From an uncultured Chloroflexia bacterium (GTDB lineage Bacteria > Chloroflexota > Limnocylindria > Limnocylindrales > CSP1-4): DNA of 64,000 nt. The notes below the pieces were generated by a model. It saw only the letters and a list, made by a program, of their open reading frames with translations, did no database searches and was not told the origin of the DNA. Shown here in pieces: positions 23,592 through 41,113 of the stretch. Position 1 is the first letter of the stretch. The number at the start of each line of letters is the position of its first letter. The stretch covers positions 151,787 to 215,786 of the forward strand of contig CAVXLA010000010.1 in assembly GCA_963762445.1 (NCBI GenBank), read 5' to 3'. A program made the translations under genes and the position numbers.

Positions 23592-25334
23592 GTGGCCAGG
23601 GCGATGATCCTCTTCGAGCGGCAGGCTGACGCCTCGTGGCTGCCCGCGACGGTAATCCTCGCCACGCCGAGGCGGCTGCAGGGCAGGTGCCTCCCGGGGA
23701 ACGCCGACCGCGATGCCCGGCTGGCGCGCATCCTGACGGACGCCCTCCCGCCCCGGCTGAACGACGACAACGAGGAGCGTGGCACCTACGAGGATTGGAT
23801 CGACTGGGGCGTCTACAACCTCGCCAACGGCCACACCACGTGGGCCACCGAGGTTAGGCCGACTCCGACGGTCGACGAGCTCTACCAACGCGAAGTTGCG
23901 GACGTCGTCTCATCGCTGCCGCCCGCAGCCCAGGTTCTTGAGGCTGGCCCCGGGAGCGAGGAGAGTGGCCTCGAACTCGTTGAGTTCACCGAAGGCGTGA
24001 TCCTCGCGATCGAGCGCGAGACGGACCAGCGCCTGTATGGCGTGATATCGGCGATAGACGGAGAGGAGGTCGGACTCACCGCGTTCCAGACATCGCTCCG
24101 GAAGGACCGCATCGTGCGGCGCACGCCACTGTCGCGCGCTACGCGCCCGATCCGGGGTGCCGATGGGTCATCCTTGCTGTTCGAGGGGTTTCACGGGTGG
24201 CACCTGGGCGTGCCGGCGGCAGGCCCCGAGCCCTCCGAGGTCGCCGCAATGCGGCACTATCCGGTGCCGCCGCTTGCGTGGCCAGAGGCCGAAGCCCATT
24301 ACCGGAACCTTCGAGTCCTCCGCGACCGCTTCATCGGCTGTCTCGTCGGCGGGGCGATCGGCGATGGTCTGGGTGGACCCGTTGATGGGCTGTCTCGGGC
24401 GAAGGTCCACGCGCGTCTTGGTCCGCTCGGAGTTCAGGAGCTGCCGCCCGAAGGCGCCCGTTGGTCCGGCGTCACGCTGCTGACGGTTGAGGTGGCCCGG
24501 AGTCTGGCCGAGCACAGGGGGCATCTGAATCCTGCTGATGTCGTCGCCCGACTCGTCGGTTCAGAGCCGACCGCCGGCGGGGTCGGACTCACATCCCACG
24601 CGGCATTGGCCGCACTGGCTAACGGGGAACCCTGGTACGAAGTCGGACCGCGGCTCGGCGTGTCAGACAACGGCGCGGCGATCAGGAGCGCACCCGTAGG
24701 GCTCGTCCACTCCGGGGAGACGGGCGCAACCGCCCTGCTTCGCGACGCTGTCCGCTTCGCGTTGCCAACGCACGGGGGCAACGTCGGCGTCGCCGCGGCG
24801 GTGGCGGTCGCTGCTGCAGTCGGATATCTGGCTCGGCTCGCGTCCACGGGCACAACGCAGCTCGAGGCTGGCCCATTCCTGGACTTCGTCGCGACCGCGA
24901 TCGGCCTGATTGAGCCCGAGCCGACCCCGACGCGACGGCCACCGGTTCGCCCGATCTACCTGCGCGACCGGATCCGCCGGATCGAGACGTGGCTGAACCG
25001 GGCACCCGAAGTAGTGTTCGATCGGATCTGGACCGGCGCCTTCGCGCTCGAGAGCATTCCGGCGGCGATCTTCTGCTTCCTCCGCGCCCCTGATCGCCCC
25101 AAGCAGGCCCTGCTGACCGCGGCCAACGCAAGTCACGCCACGGCGGCGATCGGGGCGATGACGGGCAATCTCGTGGGCGCCTGGGTGGGGGCCGACCGAC
25201 TGCGGGAGGAGCTGCCGACCTGGTGGGCGGCCGTCGAGGGAGTGAATGAGCTCTCGGCCCTTGCAGACGACCTCCTGGACGCCTCCGCCGATCTCGCCGA
25301 GTCAGAGCAGCCTCCACTCAGTCCACTCGGCTGA
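23592..25334 (+). CDS. ADP-ribosylglycohydrolase (ARH/DraG family) domain protein with an unassigned ~250-aa N-terminal domain
   Basis: ORF 23592..25334 (GTG start, GGAAGGAGA upstream). C-terminal half: DRFIGCLVGGAIGDGLGGPV...VSDNGAAIRSAPVGL...ALPTHGGNVGVAAAVAVAAAV...ESIPAAIFCFL...AANASHATAAIGAMTGNLVGAWVG. I do not recognise the N-terminal half (MARAMILFERQ...GFHGWHLGVP). Confidence 0.75.
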   Translation: MARAMILFERQADASWLPATVILATPRRLQGRCLPGNADRDARLARILTDALPPRLNDDNEERGTYEDWIDWGVYNLANGHTTWATEVRPTPTVDELYQREVADVVSSLPPAAQVLEAGPGSEESGLELVEFTEGVILAIERETDQRLYGVISAIDGEEVGLTAFQTSLRKDRIVRRTPLSRATRPIRGADGSSLLFEGFHGWHLGVPAAGPEPSEVAAMRHYPVPPLAWPEAEAHYRNLRVLRDRFIGCLVGGAIGDGLGGPVDGLSRAKVHARLGPLGVQELPPEGARWSGVTLLTVEVARSLAEHRGHLNPADVVARLVGSEPTAGGVGLTSHAALAALANGEPWYEVGPRLGVSDNGAAIRSAPVGLVHSGETGATALLRDAVRFALPTHGGNVGVAAAVAVAAAVGYLARLASTGTTQLEAGPFLDFVATAIGLIEPEPTPTRRPPVRPIYLRDRIRRIETWLNRAPEVVFDRIWTGAFALESIPAAIFCFLRAPDRPKQALLTAANASHATAAIGAMTGNLVGAWVGADRLREELPTWWAAVEGVNELSALADDLLDASADLAESEQPPLSPLG

Positions 25335-25493
25335 TACAGGTGCACGCCGCCGGTGCGTACCGCAACACCCCGTGCCATGCGAGCTGGCAAGGCCCACCGC
25401 GACCATCCCGTTTGTGACCACGAGCTTTCCGCCCTCCGAATGATGGCTCCACTCGATCGCACCCCCGCGTCGGGGGCAACCGCCGGAGGGCTC

Positions 25494-25823
25494 ATGCGCC
25501 TCACGTACGACGCCACGACCGACATCGCCTATCTCCACTTGCGGCCGCTCGCCCAGGGAGAGCCTGTCGGTCCGACGCTACTGCTCGAGACGGACGTGGC
25601 GTTCGCGGGCTTCGTCGCGCTCGACTTCTCGCTCGCCGATGGGCATGCGGTCGGCCTCGAGTTCCAGCGGGCGTCGTCCTGCCTCCCGGCCGAGCTGCTT
25701 GCCGGCGCCGTGAGAGGGCACGGCACCACCGTCGAGCGGCGACTCGACGAGCGTGTCCTGCGCAACTTGGGCGGTAGCCGCGGCGTGGCCCGATCGCGGA
25801 CCGGCCGCGCCCGGACCAACTGA
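25494..25823 (+). CDS. DUF2283 domain protein
   Basis: Tail of ORF 25353..25823 from ATG 25494 (GGAGGG upstream). MRLTYDATTDIAYLHLRP...VALDFSLADGHAVGLEF is the typical DUF2283 pattern. Confidence 0.7.
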   Translation: MRLTYDATTDIAYLHLRPLAQGEPVGPTLLLETDVAFAGFVALDFSLADGHAVGLEFQRASSCLPAELLAGAVRGHGTTVERRLDERVLRNLGGSRGVARSRTGRARTN

Positions 25824-25939: not shown

Positions 25940-29510
<3,571 letters not shown>

Positions 29511-29514
<4 letters not shown>

Positions 29515-32339
29515 GCGACCGACCGAAGCGCAAGCTCATCGAGGTCGCGCTGCCGCTCGAGGCGATCAACGTCGCGTCGGCGCGCGAGAAGAGCATCCGC
29601 CACGGCCACCCGAGCACGCTCCACCTGTGGTGGGCGCGCCGGCCGCTCGCCGCCTGCCGGGCCGTCCTGTTCGCCAGCCTCGTCGACGACCCGTCGTCCG
29701 ACCCCGACCGCTTCCCGACGCCGAAGGCCGTCGAGGACGAGCGGACCCGCCTCTTCGGGATCATCGAGCGCCTCGTCCAGTGGGAGAACAGCACGAACGA
29801 GGCGGTCCTCGAGGAGGCCCGCGCCGAGATCCGCCGCTCCACCGGCGGCAACCCGCCGCCCGTCCTCGACCCGTTCTGCGGCGGCGGCTCGATCCCGCTC
29901 GAGGCCCAGCGCCTCGGGCTCGACCGCCTACGCCTCCGACCTCAACCCGGTCGCCGTCCTCATCACGAAGGCGCTCATCGAGATCCCGCCGAAGTTCGCG
30001 AACCTGCCGCCGGTCCACCCCGACGCCCGCCGCGGCGTCGGCGGCACGGGCGCCTGGAAGGGCGCCGCCGGGCTCGCCGAGGACGTCCGCCGCTACGGCG
30101 CCTGGATGCGCGACGAGGCCGAGCGCCGGATCGGCCACCTCTACCCGAAGGTCCGCCTGCCGAAGGAGCACGGCGGCGGCGAGGCGACGGTCATCGCCTG
30201 GCTCTGGGCCCGCACGGTCACCTGCCCGAACCCCGCCTGCGGCGCACGGATGCCGCTCGTCCGCTCGTTCGCGCTCTCGACGAAGAAGGGCAAGGAGGCC
30301 TGGGTCGAGCCGATCGTCGACCGCGCGGCGAAGACGGTCCGCTTCGAGGTTCGGACGGGCCACGGGACGCCGCCCGAGCCGCCGAAGGTCGGCCGCGGGG
30401 CGACTTCCGCTGCCTCGTCTGCGAGCACCGGTCGCGCTCGACGAGCACATCAAGGCCGAGGGCCGGGCCAGGCGGATGGGCGCCCAGCTCATGGCGATCG
30501 TCGCCGAGGGCCAGCGCGGCCGCATCTACCTGCGCGCCGACCGACGAGCACGAGGCGATCGCGCGGTCGGCCGAGCCGGCGTGGGCGCCCGACGAGCGAT
30601 CTGCCGACGCAAGCCCGCGAGCTTCTGGACGCGCCAGCTACGGCATGACGACGTTCCGCGACCTCTTCACGCCGCGCCAGCTCGTCGCTCTGACGACGTT
30701 CAGCGACCTCGTCGGCGAGGCCCGCGAGCGCGTCCTCCGCGACGCCGTCGCCGCCGGCCTCGCCGACGACGACGTCCGCCTCGACGGCGGCGGCACGGCG
30801 CGCTGCCTACGCCGACGCGGTCGCGACGTACCTGGCGTTCGCGGTCGAGCAAGCTCGCCGACTACTGGTCATCGCTCTGCGCTCGTGGAGTCGAGCCGAC
30901 GATCGAGCTCGTCGGCGACACCTTCGCGCGCCAGGCGCTCCCGATGACCTGGGACTTCGCCGAGGCCAACCCGTTCGGCGGCGCCGGCGGCGACTTCGGT
31001 CGAGCGCATCGACTGCGATCGCCGAGGTCGTCGGCAGCCTCGCGCGTCGGCCGCGGCGCTGGCGTCGTCAGCAGCGCGATGCCAGCCGACGTCGATCGCG
31101 TGCCGGTCGGCCGCTCGTCTCGACCGACCCGCCGTACTACGACAACATCGGCTACGCGGACCTGTCCGACTTCTTCTACGTCTGGCTGCGCCGCTCGCTC
31201 GGCGACGTCTACCCGGACCTGTTCGGCACGCTGCTGACGCCGAAGACAGCCGAGCTCGTCGCCGACGCCGTACCGCTTCGGCGGCGACAAGGCAAGGCGC
31301 GAAGCGCACTTCGAGGACGGGCTCGGCGCGGCGTTCGCGCGCATGCGCGAGGTCGCCGACCCGACGTTCCCGGTGACCATCTACTACGCCTTCAAGCAGG
31401 CGGAGTCCGACGGCGACGACGACGGCCGATGGCGCGATCGCCTCGACCGGCTGGGAGACGATGCTCGAGGGCCTGCTCGCCGCCGGGCTTCTCGATCGAC
31501 GGCACATGGCCGATGCGGACCGAGCGGGCGACCGGATGCATCGCGATCGGCACGAACGCTCTCGCCTCGTCGATCGTCCTCGTCTGCCGGCCCCGCCCGG
31601 CCGACGCCGGCATCACGACCCGCAAGGACTTCGTCGCCAGCCCTCAAGCGCGAGATGCCCGAGGCGCTGCGGACGCTCCAGCACGGCAACATCGCGCCGG
31701 TGGACCTCGCCCAGGCGTCGATCGGGCCGGGGATGGCGGTCTTCAGCCGCTACGCGAAGGTGCTCGAGCCCGACGGCTCGGCGATGCGCGTCCGCACCGC
31801 GCTCGCGCTCATCAACCAGGTCCTCGACGAGATCCTCGCCGAGCAGGAGGGCGAGTTCGACGCCGACACCCGCTGGGCGATCGCCTGGTACGAGCAGTTC
31901 GGCCTCGGCGAGTCGGCGTACGGGACCGCGGAGACGCTGTCGAAGGCGAAGAACAGCTCGGTCGCCGGCCTCGTCGAGGCCGGCATCGTCGCCGCGTCGC
32001 GCGGACGCGTGCGCCTCCTCGCCCGCGACGAGTACACGCGCCGACTGGGATCCCGCGAAGGACACGCGCATCCCCGTCTGGGAGGCGACCCAGCGCCTCG
32101 TCCACGCCCTGCTGACCGACGGCGAGGCGGCGGCCGGCGACCTGCTCGCGCGCCTCGGCGGCCTCGGCGACACCGCCCGCGACCTCGCCTACCGCATGTA
32201 CCACGTCGCCGAGCGCAAGGGCTGGACCGACGAGGCCCGGGCGTACAACGCGCTCGTCGTGGCCTGGACCGACCTCGCCCGCGGGGCGGAGTCGGCCCGC
32301 GCTGCCCAGCCGGCACAGACGAGCCTCGGGCTCGAGTAG
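29511..32339 (+). pseudogene. DUF1156-type DNA methyltransferase with Zn ribbon (COG1743-like, amino-MTase DPPY); at least 12 frame changes as assembled
   Basis: GTG 29511 overlaps the helicase stop (GTGA). Pieces lie in ORFs 29334..30947, 30106..30648, 29627..31237, 31343..32359, 31429..32115 and 31461..32339, plus a hand-read frame. Motifs: [45 protein letters not shown] motif [10 protein letters not shown] (29862), CPNPAC...CLVCEH (30223-30422), [26 protein letters not shown] (DPPY at 31126-31137), C-terminal ...YRMYHVAERKGWTDEARAYNALVVAW, stop TAG 32337. Confidence 0.8.
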
Positions 32340-32349
32340 GGGACGCACG

Positions 32350-35614
<3,265 letters not shown>

Positions 35615-35727
35615 GGGGTTGGACGCGACGTCGATCCGGCATGCGCCTGCAGTTGGCGGCATCGTTCGCCGAGGCCGTATGACCCCGGTGACGTCGCGGG
35701 TTCGCGCCTCGGTGCCGTCCGACGAGT

Positions 35728-38700
35728 TTGTGCCCGCCACACGAGTCGGAGGCTGACGCGCTCGTGCTCGCCCTCTCTCGCGGGAAGGCGCAAGCGGTCC
35801 TCCAGGCTGAGGCCCTTGCCGATGACTTCGAGGGTTGGCTCGGGATCACGGATGAGGTCGCCCGGGACTACGCAGGGCGCTTCGTCACGGAGCTGATCCA
35901 GAACGCGCACGACGCCCACGACCCCGAGCGCACAGACGGCGAGATCGACATCGTCTTCGATCCCCGCGAAGGACCGTCGGGCACCCTATACGTCGCGAAC
36001 AAGGGTCGCCCGTTCAACTACGGGGACCTGTGCTCGATCTCCGTGCTCGCGAGGTCGTCGAAGCACCCGGGTCAGGGCATCGGCAACAAGGGCGTGGGCT
36101 TCAAGTCCGTCTTTCTCGTGTCCGATGCGCCCGAGGTCTATCTCGGCCGGGGCCAACCGGCGCGATGGCGCCCTGGACGGCTTCTGCTTCACGTTCGCGA
36201 CGCCGCAAGGACTACCTGACGCTTGCTGGCGACGACGCGGCCGCGGCCGACCGCTCGCAGAAGCGGCGCCACCACAGCGGCCTGCCGATGCCGCTGACCC
36301 GCGAGGGCAACGCCACCGTCAGGTCGCTCGCCGCCCGCGGCCACAACGTGGTGATCCGCCTCCCGATCCGTAGGAAGGCGACGGGCGATGTGCAGCGGCA
36401 ACTGCAGGAGCTGGTGAGCGGCGGGGCGCCGATGCTGCTCTTCTTCGACCGTATCCGGCGGCTCCATGTCGACGTCCGCGGTGGCGAGCCAGCGACGCTT
36501 GAGCGCAGAGCGGAGCCCGTTCTTGCGGATGGGAGAACTCCACCTAGAGCGGGTCAGGCTCGGGGCGCAGGGTACCTACCTTTGTTCGACCGCCGAGGTC
36601 CCGGCCAACCGCTTCAAGACGGCCATCCGCGACAGCGTCGATCAGGGCCGCATCGACGCCCGCTGGCTCGAGTGGTCGGAACCGGCCGCAGTGTCCGTCG
36701 CGGTGCGGACGGACGAGGTCGAAACCGACGATCGGCTGTATTGCTTCTTGCCGATGGGCGCGGACGCCCAGTCGCCGTTCCAAGGTCATGTCAACGCGCC
36801 CTTCTCTGTCGCCATCGCCCGGAAGGCACTCGTCGAGGAGACGCCACTCAACGAGCTGCTGCTCGATGCGGCCGCCGAGCTCGCTTGCAGGACCGCAGCG
36901 GCGATTGCCACGACGTCCTGGGGCAGGGTTGCGGCCGCGGACCTCATCGCATGGAAGCCCGAAGGCGTCGAGTCGCCTGCTTGACCGCTGCGGCACGAGA
37001 GCCGGATCAACCTCGAGAGGAAGCCGCTGCTCGCGATCCTGCCGGGAGTCGCCCTGGGATCTTGAAGACGGCCTGGGCATGGACTGCCGAGGAACTCACG
37101 GTGATGACGCCCGCCACGTTGGCACAGGCGAAGGTCGAGGTGCTCGATCCGGGGCTCGGGCACGACCGGGTACAACGGCTTGCGGTGTTCGCTCAGGCGG
37201 CCTTCCTCCGGGTGATGGAGACCTGGACGCGGGTGACATTGCACGGTGGGCAGAGGGTGTAGCCCAGGTCTTGGCAAGCGCCGAGCACGGCCGTCGCAAG
37301 CTCGACGCGTCCAGGTGGCTCGCGTTCTATGACGATCTCGCTGCCCTTGCTGGTACCCGTCCTCGAACTGCCGCTACACCTAGCGAACCGACGGATTGTC
37401 ATCGACGACCATCTGCGCCTACTCCCGTGCCGCGGGTCGGCCGCGGGAAAGCGCGCCCGCGGCGACTTCACCGTGTTCTTCCGACCCGGCTCGACCGTGG
37501 ATGATGAAGGGGATGACGCGCCAGGTGACCTCGAGCTTCCGACATCCCTCGAGGCTCGCCTCGCATTCCCACACTCGTCGTTGCGTTGGCTCGAGGTCAC
37601 CCCACAGGGCCGGGTCAACCGGCCAGGCCGCGACCTGTTGGAGGATGCGGGTGTTCGCCAGTGGCGCCTGGAGGACCTCTACCCCGAGGTTGGGGCGCTC
37701 GTGAGGCTCGAGTCAGGACGAGCGCGTGTGGGCCGATGCCTTGCGGTTCGTCTTCGCGGCATATCGGCGGACCCTCCGGTCGCGAGCAACCGACGTGACC
37801 CCTGCGAACCTCTGCGTACCGACAGCCGACGGATCATGGAGGCCGGCCCGCGACGCCCGATTCGGGAAGGGCTGGCCCGAGGCAACACTCGGTCCCGACC
37901 TCGCATCGTTCGTCGCACTGGCCGGGGACGACCCGGAGATCGAACAGCTGCCGGTCTCGCCTGCTCGCTCCCTTCGACGGCCGGCGGTATCGCGGCACCC
38001 CCGCGGAGTGGGCTGCGTTCCTGACGGCAGCCGGTGTCGCCACGGGCCTGGCACCCGACAACCTCGTTCCGCGAACGCTGCAGCTGCCCAAGTGGCAGTT
38101 CCGCTCGAGCCACCTGTTGGAGTACCTCGGCCTGTCGCGAGAGCGCGACAGGGCGTGGGCGCATGCGATCGACGCTGCGCCGCAGCCGACACGACGCAGC
38201 CCCTGGACGATGCGAGGACCGGTCTATCGGATTCCGGGTCAGGGTGCGCTGACGACCCTGACCCCCGAGGCGCGGCACCGTTTCGCGGATCTGATCCTCG
38301 CCGGACTGCCGACCTGGCCACCGACGTCTTCCATACGGAGAATCGAGTCGGTGCGCTGGCCGTCGCCCGTGTTCTCCTTCCTGCAGACGGCCGCTTGGCT
38401 TCCAGTCAGCCGGCCGTCGGCTCCGCTCCACGTTTCGTCACAGTGTCCGACGCATGGCACCACATTGAGGACGACGGTGGCGTTCCCGTGTACGCGGAGC
38501 TTTTGCTGCGGTCCGTCCGCGCGAGGATCGGGGCACACCCACTCCTCTGGGACCGCCTCCGCGAGCTCGGGGTGAAGGAGTGGGGCGATCCCCAGTGTGC
38601 GGCGGCGCGCCTGAAGGTCCTTACGGATCTCGCTGACACTGACCTCCCCGACAACCACCGGCAGTATGTCCGACGGGCGTATGAGCGATCATGGTCAAGC

Positions 38701-41113
38701 GTCGTCAGCCCTCAAGCTCCAGCTGCCGTGGACGAATGCCCGCCGCTCTTGGTTACCGTCAAGGGACGCCTGGCGGTACACGACCCCCGCCAACAGCGCG
38801 GCAAGGTCTACCTGCTCACGTGGCGGGATGCGCTCGCGGAGAAGCTGGTCGACGAGCGATCGGTCGCTCGCCTTCGGGTGGAGCCAAAGGATGCAGAGCG
38901 ACGTCGCCACGTTGCTGCGGCCATCGCTTGGTGACCGCCTGATCGAGGTCGGGCGACGCGACATCACCGTCTCGATCGGGAGCCAGGTCGTCCGGCCGTC
39001 AGCCGCCGACCCGGCCCTGGTCACTGCCCAGCGCGCATGGCTCGCCGACCTACTCGCGATCACACTCAATCTCGTCTTCCGCACCGACGTGACGCCCCAG
39101 ACCACCGCTCGCGCCGTTGGCAAGCTCCGCAGGATCCGGCTCCGCTTCGGTAGTCCGATCAAGGTGGCGGTCCGGAACACAGGCCTCGGGGACACCGACG
39201 GCGCCGTATCAGCGGTGCCCGTCGACGACGACCGGCTCCCTACGATCGTTGTCGCGGGCGACGGAGGCGCCGAAGCGAAAGCGCTCCGGTGGCCGCAGCT
39301 TGAGGCGATGTCCTCCGCCATCGCTGAGCTGGTGGGCTATCCATCGGCCGATGTCGCACTGCGGTTCGCCATCTCCAAGCTGGCAGGCGGCAGCCCGGGT
39401 CCGGTGACCCGTCCTAACGAGGAGACCTACGCGTCGGCGCTCGGAATCCGAGAAGCGGCAGTGCGCGAAGTGCTGCTTGCGAACCGCGACTTGCTGAACC
39501 GGCTGGTCTTCGTCCTTCGTCCCGTCGTCCGCTGCCTCGGAAGCAGCCGGACCCTCAAGGCCCTGGACGGCGGCGGCGAGGACGGTCCGTCCGAGCGGCG
39601 CCTGCTCGAGCTCTTCGCGCAGCTGCGGCTCCCCGGCGGCTGGACTCCGGAGTCGCTGCTCGCCGCCGCTCGCGAGGCGGACACGCCGACGGACCTGCGC
39701 GATCGGCTGGGGATCCCGTTTGGCGAGTTCAACGCCGCGCTCGAGGCATTGGGTGGTCCATACGAGCCTGACCGGCAGCGCGACATCCATGAGGCGGAAT
39801 TCGCACGCTGGCTGAGGATGGCCATGAGCGGATCGCCCTGACGCTACGCGCCGCTGCGCTGCCCTCGTTCGACGAAGGCTCAATCCCCGCGTGGTACCCG
39901 GCAGCACTCGCGGAGTTGGACCGGGCGCGTCGCCTCGGTCCGGCCGCGGAACGCCCAAATGTCGCACGTCTCACCGCGGATCCCACCTGGCTCGACCAGA
40001 TGCGAGTCCCGACGCCCGATGTGATGCGGGAGCGTCTCGGGTCCTGGCTCTCGACCTTCGGGATCTCAGCCCCCTCCGGCCGAGTCCCGGGACTGCGCAA
40101 GCTCGCCGACGTACGAGCGGCAAACACCACGACCGTCGATCATCTCTCGCGAGCGGCCGCCCCGCTGGTCTTCGCCTGGTGCAGGATCCACGACACTGAA
40201 GCACCGAGTTGGGCGTCCGGCGGACCCAGGGCACTCTCCCTCGAGCTCCAGCACAACGGCGTGCTGGACTTTCGAAAGCTGGACCTGGCAGCCGTCCTCG
40301 ACTGGTTGCCGAAGGTCGCCGGGACATGGCCAGCCTCGATGCCGCTCACTCGCGATCCGGATAGGCTCGGCCTGACCCGCAACCAGGTGTCGGCCGCGGC
40401 TGCCGAGCTGGCGAACCAAGGCGAACCTTCCAAGGCAAAGGTGAGGCGGTCTGTGCCGCTGGACGGACACGAAGTCTCGCTCGCCGACGACGGTGCTGCA
40501 GACCTTCTTGCTCGCGTCGACGGGTCGCTCGGCAGCCTCCTCGAGGTGCCGCCAGAGATCGCCCAAACCGGACCGCTGCCAGAGGGGCGAGGCGATGGTG
40601 GCGGTCGGGGAGGACGCGGCGGTGCCGCCAGCGAGACGAGCCTGTCTGACGCCCAGCGCGAGATCATTGGGTTCATCGGGGAGTTGGTCGCCTATCGGTG
40701 GCTGTGTCGCCACCTGGGCGACGGACGCGTCACCTGGTGCTCCGGCCTCGCCCTGTCATTACGACGCGACGCTCCCCGGTGAACGACAGCCTCGGCTACG
40801 ACATGCGCGTCGTCGACCCCGGGATCCTCGCCGGCGGCGAAGGGCTAGCGCGCCAGCTCTTCATCGAGGTCAAGGCCGTTGGCGAGCCGCGGCCTGGTCG
40901 TCCCGTCTCGTTCAGCCTCACACGTATCGAGGTCGAGTTCGCGCAGGAGCACGCTGACGACGGCAGCTACTTCATCCTCGTGGTCGCGAACGCGCTGAAG
41001 AGCGAGCAGCCGGACGCATCCATCTGCTCCCGAACCCATTCTCCGCCGCGGGTCGCAAGGTCTTCCGGGACATGTCGGACACGCGGACGATGCTGTTCAA
41101 CCTGGCGGGCTAG
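35728..41113 (+). pseudogene. Giant (~1800 aa) GHKL/Bergerat-fold ATPase (sacsin/MORC-like N-terminus) with a C-terminal DUF3883-like nuclease module; at least 13 frame changes as assembled
   Basis: Pieces lie in ORFs 35728..36219, 36125..36373, 36030..37262, 36466..36984, 36788..37504, 37329..38024, 37726..38934, 38117..38575, 38666..39841, 39916..40782 and 40698..41225, plus a hand-read last frame (..IHLLPNPFSAAGRKVFRDMSDTRTMLFNLAG, TAG 41111). Motifs: FVTELIQNAHDA (35890), LYVANKGRPF, GQGIGNKGVGFKSVFLVSD. C-terminus: REIIGFIGELVAYRWL...SLGYDMRVV...LFIEVKAV...FSLTRIEVEFA...YFILVVAN. The start is uncertain: TTG 35728, or ATG 35679 with one more frame change. Confidence 0.7.

Follow-up and report, generated by a model that had tools for sequence, protein, structure and literature searches.

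In this work, we describe a gene of 5.4 kb, broken by many small insertions and deletions (indels), in a stretch of 64,000 nucleotides (nt), hereafter the window, from an uncultured Chloroflexia bacterium of the order Limnocylindrales (assembly GCA_963762445.1, contig CAVXLA010000010.1, positions 151,787 to 215,786 of the forward strand; G+C content about 72%). The gene lies next to a three-gene operon, hmaABC, of the Hma defence type and, once its frame is repaired, is very probably tmtA, the single gene of the Tiamat defence system. The coding region and the parts distinguished in its product, a protein of about 1800 amino acids (aa), are the following.

35679-41113, plus strand: probable tmtA (Tiamat) coding region, about 1806 codons and a TAG stop, from frameshift-aware alignment to the homologues P0001 and P0002
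35742-36461, plus strand: sacsin/Hsp90-type GHKL ATP-binding domain, from NF047352, Pfam SACS, a profile search of the PDB and Foldseek
36462-37382, plus strand: predicted Hsp90 middle-domain-like (transducer-like) region, residues ~261-565, from AlphaFold2 and Foldseek; boundary approximate
37383-40584, plus strand: central region, residues ~566-1632, mixed alpha/beta by model; predicted local distance difference test (pLDDT) 84-87, no family match
40585-40635, plus strand: predicted flexible Gly/Arg-rich linker, GRGDGGGRGGRGGAAS; pLDDT below 50 at residues 1633-1649 (residues 633-649 of the C-terminal-half model)
40636-41110, plus strand: NOV_C/DUF3883 PD-(D/E)xK nuclease domain, from Pfam NOV_C; catalytic residues intact

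A single gene hidden by frameshifts

As sequenced, 35679-41113 is a patchwork of more than 10 overlapping open reading frame (ORF) fragments, spread over all three plus-strand frames. Plain tblastn had merged frame-shifted stretches; a frameshift-aware dynamic-programming aligner was written for tmtA and hmaABC, and domain searches on the broken region were run on X-masked frames. The closest homologues of a stitched draft of the gene are P0001 (1806 aa), then P0002 (1819 aa). Guided by P0001, the alignment spans 35679-41110, with the TAG stop at 41111-41113, and shows 77% identity over 1784 codons, with no in-frame stop. It contains 22 frameshifts, 14 of +1 and 8 of -1 nt, located in the first half of the gene at about 35748, 36145, 36203, 36534, 36973, 37002, 37064, 37221, 37231, 37367 and 37707, and in the second half at about 37951, 38322, 38344, 38424, 38713, 38733, 38902, 39816, 40756, 40784 and 41011. 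The same sites recur when a harsher frameshift penalty is imposed or P0002 is used as guide, at least 14-15 net shifts being left. The interruption amounts to 15 (a conservative count) to 22 single-base frameshifts, and because of these indels tmtA cannot be translated as written.

Once the frames are repaired, 35679-41113 is one gene of about 1800 aa, not several. An earlier annotation made from the letters of the window and their ORFs (the sequence-only reading) had proposed exactly these coordinates and a single protein of this size, and had envisaged that the region might resolve into separate genes upon repair: one continuous protein was obtained instead. Its size is also that of its relatives. 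The stitched draft has at least 389 homologues, of which 120 were listed, almost all of them about 1750-1840 aa long, and 79 of 82 sampled TmtA loci (searched by tblastn with flanks of up to 10 kb; 90 loci were used for the clustering of flanking ORFs described below) contain a single intact ORF of 1700 aa or more.

Domain organization

The N-terminal part of the protein carries the motifs of the Bergerat ATP-binding fold: the N-box ELIQNAHDA (35890-35913), a sacsin-type motif II, LYVANKGRPF (35989-36015), and the G-box GIGNKGVGFKS (36076-36108, quoted as GQGIGNKGVGFKS). The unbroken piece 35749-36141 scores above the cut-offs of both NCBIfam NF047352, the sacsin N-terminal ATP-binding-like family (79.2 bits, cut-off 50), and Pfam SACS (37.3 bits, cut-off 32.8). 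Against solved structures, the family profile matches only sacsin SRR1 (5v44-5v47, E=3e-11) and the N-domains of TRAP1/Hsp90; the alignment with sacsin displays ELIQNAxDA, an Asn replacing the canonical Asp of motif II, and the GxxGxGF(K/N)SV box. In a 25-member alignment of the subfamily, motif I (ExxxNxxD) and the G-box (GxxGxG) are present, and E71, N75, D78, G135, G138 and G140 are invariant. The canonical motif II, DxGxG with its adenine-contacting Asp, is absent: in its place stands (V)ANxGxxF, whose Asn107 is almost invariant across the family, and sacsin SRR1 aligns at this site with YNN-xxF.

P0001 was modelled by AlphaFold2 as two halves, residues 1-1010 and 1001-1806, from 22-row alignments, with a mean pLDDT of 87 for the N-terminal and 84 for the C-terminal half. 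The top Foldseek matches of the N-terminal half are HSP90B, TRAP1, HtpG and yeast Hsp90, over 540-590 columns and with E down to 2e-8, while SMCHD1, Topo VI-B, MORC2 and MutL match more weakly; Foldseek probability is 1.0 for Hsp90B, TRAP1, HtpG, SMCHD1, Topo VI-B, MORC2 and MutL, with 400-590 aligned columns. Since the alignments cover both the N-domain and the middle domain, the predicted ATPase module would extend from about residue 22 to about residue 565. The sequence-only reading had called this N-terminus a GHKL (Bergerat) domain, "sacsin/MORC/Hsp90-like". Motifs and cut-offs confirm the GHKL fold and its sacsin/Hsp90 type, while "MORC-like" turns out to be imprecise: membership in the MORC family was rejected, the Foldseek values for MORC2 being 4e-4 to 5e-3, against 2e-8 for Hsp90, and the sequence profiles matching only sacsin (SRR1) and TRAP1.

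The following ~1100 residues (~566-1632) are confidently predicted by the models, yet match nothing in Pfam or the PDB. For the middle part of the protein neither Pfam nor NCBIfam yields a family, as the sequence-only reading, which could recognise no domain there, had anticipated; the model of the C-terminal half, taken as a whole, has no Foldseek match in the PDB below E=0.5; and hhalign detects no internal repeat between the N- and C-terminal halves. Structure prediction, which that reading had suggested for this middle, did assign part of it, the Hsp90-like middle domain up to about residue 565, but ~566-1632 are left without assignment, because no family, structure or repeat match was found. 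The C-terminal half has just low-probability Foldseek matches (E>=0.5), to the PD-(D/E)xK enzymes SPARDA nuclease, EcoRV, SwaI and Hjc.

At the C-terminus, Pfam NOV_C (PF13020) recognises the unbroken piece 40785-41009 with 32.0 bits (gathering cut-off 22.1), in keeping with the DUF3883 tail noticed earlier. The catalytic motif is intact in the window, with GYD at 40794-40802, (I)EVK at 40866-40874 and the helix Glu at 40929-40931; D1704, E1726 and K1728, the D...E-V-K of the PD-(D/E)xK signature, are invariant in the 25-member alignment and kept in the window. This tail had been likened to that of the helicase encoded upstream, HmaA. HmaA does have a NOV_C domain, but identity between the two modules is 24% across 91 aligned aa (E=0.12), which indicates distant kinship only; they are accordingly not recent duplicates, and the origin of the TmtA tail by a recent duplication of the HmaA tail was ruled out.

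Assignment to Tiamat

The repaired protein matches the PADLOC model PDLC03971 (TmtA) with 1315.7 bits, residues 24-1799 aligning with positions 12-1773 of the 1782 of the model, and five homologues match it end to end with 1321-1690 bits. A full-length match to a TmtA profile is the criterion by which both PADLOC and DefenseFinder recognise Tiamat. The architecture of the system is found as well, with NF047352 and SACS at the N-terminus and NOV_C at the C-terminus of one polypeptide after repair.

Tiamat is described in the supplements of Millman et al. (2022) as a single gene, TmtA, annotated "Hsp90, DUF3684, DUF3883"; the TmtA of Bacillus cereus FORC_005 (1590 aa) is marked there as verified for defence, and the table of Tiamat homologues (S20), which has one gene column, includes Actinoplanes, Amycolatopsis and Arthrobacter. 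A later survey places Tiamat among the single-gene PD-(D/E)xK systems (10.1101/2024.10.26.620412). Its mechanism is given as unknown in PMC12926258, and our literature search brought up no work on its mechanism or structure. The gene in the window resembles the TmtA models PDLC03964-03972 in being a single large gene, in the order of its parts (Hsp90/sacsin-type ATPase, long middle, DUF3883/NOV_C), and in its stand-alone occurrence in variable defence islands. It differs in belonging to a longer subfamily, of about 1800 aa compared with the 1590 aa of the verified member, and in being frame-broken in the window. A direct comparison of the first 399 residues of the verified protein with P0001 gives 35% identity over 101 aa (E=2e-9), including the three Bergerat motifs.

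Several points weigh against this assignment, or against parts of it. By BLAST, the rest of those 399 residues has no significant similarity to P0001, so that within this stretch the likeness is confined to the GHKL core. The defence activity of the ~1800-aa subfamily would be presumed by analogy, because protection has been shown for one Tiamat member, that of B. cereus. Pfam DUF3684 was not detected at E<=0.1 in 25 members of the subfamily; DUF3684 is the annotation of two tested genes and not a criterion of the family, and the middle is highly divergent among the TmtA sub-models. As motif II is of the sacsin type, with Asn for Asp, hydrolysis of ATP by the predicted ATPase is not assured, mere binding being possible. 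The model of an ATP-gated nuclease, proposed below, is inferred from domain content. Finally, the island formed by hmaABC and tmtA has about 3 frameshifts per kb, against 3 confirmed ones in about 46 kb of flanks.

With these points taken into account, we regard it as highly likely that the repaired gene is tmtA, of the ~1800-aa subfamily (PDLC03971) common in Actinobacteria, that it forms a module separate from the hmaABC operon beside it, and that its indels are probably artefacts. The sequence-only reading had suspected a "possibly undescribed association"; the protein is instead attributable to a published single-gene system, and the genes upstream of it to another published system, Hma.

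Relationship to the adjacent Hma operon

The genes upstream of tmtA are frame-broken like tmtA itself, and are identified as follows.

26029-35614, plus strand: hmaABC operon, frame-broken, from PADLOC and Pfam matches
~26029-29511, plus strand: hmaA, SNF2 helicase with NOV_C, from PADLOC HmaA and Pfam; 7 frameshifts
~29525-32339, plus strand: hmaB, DUF1156 methylase, from PADLOC HmaB and Pfam; 11 frameshifts
~32350-35614, plus strand: hmaC, HEPN_Swt1 and DUF499 ATPase, from PADLOC HmaC and Pfam; 9 frameshifts

An operon of the Hma type was already predicted in 2013 (PMC3710099); the name Hma dates from 2021. The system was tested in 2024 in Halomonas (H. meridiana): the NOV_C domain of HmaA was shown there to be a nickase that depends on metal and without which defence is lost, and the hma region to be a hotspot at which other defence genes insert (PMC11232893). 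Added DNA between hmaA and hmaB, seen in five relatives of the operon (L094, L095, L099, L101 and L103), fits this idea.

The position of tmtA, on the same strand as hmaC and separated from it by a gap of 64 bp, would be compatible with a new four-gene system, in which TmtA is a fourth, dedicated Hma component, a GHKL clamp-nuclease checked by HmaB methylation. No promoter-like or terminator-like site was found between hmaC and tmtA, by a scan that is uninformative for a high-GC organism; a NOV_C nuclease is common to HmaA and TmtA; and one Pseudomonas hotspot lists both Hma and Tiamat as its cargo (PMC12629846). The comparison of related loci argues strongly the other way, and makes the four-gene system very improbable. 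None of the 82 TmtA loci contains HmaB or HmaC, searched by tblastn with pieces of the window up to 10 kb on each side, and generic SNF2 similarity is found in only 2 of them, downstream of TmtA; conversely, no TmtA-like sequence occurs in 80 loci with HmaC relatives, 13 of which, from Chloroflexota metagenome-assembled genomes (MAGs), have 84-95% HmaC identity. In the two closest TmtA relatives (73% and 61% identity) the gene immediately upstream is another one, not HmaC. The pairing is missing even from Hma operons as close as those of two Chloroflexota/'Candidatus Limnocylindrales' MAG loci (L092 and L093), to which 25954-35617 of the window is 85-89% identical at the nucleotide level: homology to the related Hma loci ends sharply at both ends of the operon, at 35615-35627 on the tmtA side, that is, at the hmaC stop codon. 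The resemblance to these MAG loci may mean that the window derives from a bacterium of that group, or else that the operon was acquired by transfer. The low identity of the two NOV_C modules, just 24%, also speaks against a common system.

No other partner of TmtA emerged. When all flanking ORFs of the 90 loci were clustered, no family was present in more than 7, HmaB and HmaC being absent from all 90, and the neighbours vary even among the ten nearest relatives, including an Ssp/Dnd-like set (inferred from Pfam domains), Dcm with Vsr, BREX PglZ/BrxL, NERD/UvrD and TniB/TniQ. Homologues thus lie mostly alone or in unrelated contexts, in the TmtA as in the HmaC loci, an outcome that the sequence-only reading had itself named as contrary to its proposal of a "last gene of a methylation-linked operon", which the absence of the pair from 90 TmtA and 80 HmaC loci leads us to abandon. 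The fallback of that reading, an independent single-gene defence protein that sits beside a three-gene core, is instead supported by the co-occurrence counts and by the point at which nucleotide homology ends. The adjacency of TmtA and Hma is best described, from these sequence comparisons, as the juxtaposition, within a defence island, of modules that differ in origin. Another form of coupling, a lineage-specific composite of Tiamat and Hma in which HmaB methylation or the HmaC HEPN-ATPase gates the TmtA nuclease, has in our judgement no better than a very slim chance; if true, it would be the first example of Tiamat coupled to a methylation system.

Base composition also changes along the region: G+C is 68-69% over tmtA (36-42 kb), 72-74% in hmaB/hmaC and 73-75% in the flanks, consistent with separate foreign origins. 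As to the neighbours of TmtA elsewhere, the commonest one, found on either side in 7 of the 90 loci, is a protein of about 1170 aa with an AAA_11/AAA_12 helicase and an RNase_H_2/RecB-like domain (L085, 7007-10519; L001, 1-225). The gene ending just upstream of P0001 encodes a Cys-rich C-terminus, CRYCDFARMC, and may be of the same ~1170-aa kind.

The island is set between an ogt-like gene and copA, and also includes an ADP-ribosylglycohydrolase-domain gene and a DUF2283 gene. The other features recorded in it and next to it are the following.

23592-25334: intact ORF of 580 aa; strong Pfam match to the ADP-ribosylglycohydrolase domain (171.9 bits), N-terminal part long and unassigned
25353-25823: small DUF2283-like ORF, after the 580-aa ORF; both lie directly upstream of hmaA
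43927-43999, minus strand: tRNA-Glu(CTC), just downstream of copA, the sole tRNA in the window

The two ORFs have no PADLOC match and may be further cargo of the island. No integrase was seen near it.

Nature of the frameshifts

The island, from 26.0 to 41.1 kb, contains about 49 indels, 34 of +1, 14 of -1 and 1 of -2 nt. Frame errors are not confined to it, since single frameshifts are found outside it at the 3' end of copA (~43540), in proC (~4818) and in a btuF-like periplasmic binding protein gene (~3796), of which copA encodes a P-type ATPase and proC the pyrroline-5-carboxylate reductase. Several flanking genes of 2-2.5 kb keep their frame unchanged, and the regional excess is such that uniform sequencing error is not a sufficient explanation: an additional assumption is needed, for instance, as a guess, low read depth over the accessory island in a long-read assembly. 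The frameshift sites are not homopolymer runs. Programmed frameshifting was ruled out as a cause, the 15-22 sites of tmtA being scattered and without a shared motif.

The excess, about 3 frameshifts per kb and far above the flanks, counts in favour of genuine decay, in which tmtA and the whole Hma-Tiamat island would be pseudogenes, recently inactivated by many small indels. Decay of tmtA does occur, as the homologues at L075 (Streptomyces sp. NPDC102462) and L077 (S. torulosus) are interrupted, with longest ORFs of 1239 and 1497 aa; both are from isolate genomes and may be real disrupted copies. The pattern in the window is nevertheless a different one. Of the ~49 events, one alone exceeds a single nucleotide, insertions prevail (34 against 15), and none is a larger deletion of the sort that usually marks gene decay in bacteria. 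Not one in-frame stop is found in the ~4660 repaired codons of hmaA, hmaB, hmaC and tmtA. The protein sequences are nearly perfectly preserved: guided by the intact L093 operon, HmaA shows 98.8% aa identity to its orthologue despite 7 frameshifts, and HmaC 94.7% despite 9, hmaB having 11; the repaired TmtA retains 75 of the 77 residues that are invariant in the 25-member alignment and 70 of the 73 that are nearly so, and its ratio of nonsynonymous to synonymous substitution rates (dN/dS) to the closest relative is 0.16. Two housekeeping genes, proC and copA, are frameshifted too.

Given the small size of the indels, their bias towards insertion, the lack of nonsense codons and the near-perfect protein conservation, they are probably errors of the assembly consensus rather than marks of biological inactivation. 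Genuine recent inactivation is unlikely, and a small share of our confidence is reserved for it because a uniform error model leaves the regional excess unexplained.

Comparison with related proteins and proposed function

HmaA and TmtA are alike in being large NTPases that end in the same NOV_C domain, with D...ExK and the helix Glu. Their motors differ, that of HmaA being an SNF2 helicase and that of TmtA a GHKL ATPase, and so does their company: HmaA usually travels with HmaB and HmaC, TmtA alone. With the sacsin SRR and Hsp90/TRAP1, TmtA shares the Bergerat fold, ELIQNAxDA and GxxGxGF(K/N)SV, and with sacsin also the Asn of motif II; it has none of the DnaJ, HEPN and ubiquitin-like domains, nor the C-terminal dimerisation domain of Hsp90, and is prokaryotic, accessory and fused to a nuclease. 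The plant protein NO VEIN (NOV) has a layout like that of TmtA, being large, with a sacsin-like GHKL region and a C-terminal NOV_C domain, and is a eukaryotic nuclear developmental factor. Iyer et al. (2008, PMC2292703) link prokaryotic MORC and paraMORC GHKL ATPases to restriction-modification systems. Like TmtA, these proteins of conflict systems join a GHKL and transducer-type module to nucleases, the analogy drawn by the sequence-only reading, whereas the domain of TmtA groups with sacsin and a conserved methylase or helicase partner is absent.

These kinships leave room for a non-immune role, as a housekeeping sacsin/Hsp90-like chaperone or chromatin-type ATPase, since it is indeed sacsin, Hsp90 and TRAP1 that the N-terminal part matches best in sequence and structure. 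Such a role is extremely improbable for an ATPase fused to a conserved PD-(D/E)xK nuclease with intact catalytic residues, whose distribution across phyla is patchy and accessory, whose neighbourhoods are variable and often contain defence genes, and of whose family a member confers phage resistance (Millman et al. 2022).

As a component of Tiamat, TmtA may work as follows. Binding of ATP to the sacsin/Hsp90-type GHKL module (ATP-binding and middle domains) would bring about a conformational change or dimerisation; the ~1100-residue central region would act as a sensor, of infection or of DNA, or as a scaffold; and the NOV_C PD-(D/E)xK domain, held on its flexible Gly-rich linker, would be the effector, nicking or cutting DNA after it has been licensed.

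With the frames repaired, PADLOC or DefenseFinder would call the locus "Hma + Tiamat", so that its value as a discovery is small. It does illustrate that indel-ridden assemblies can hide large defence genes, here one of 5.4 kb. The models yield a domain map of the ~1800-aa subfamily for work on Tiamat, and the central region of TmtA could possibly contain new sensor folds.

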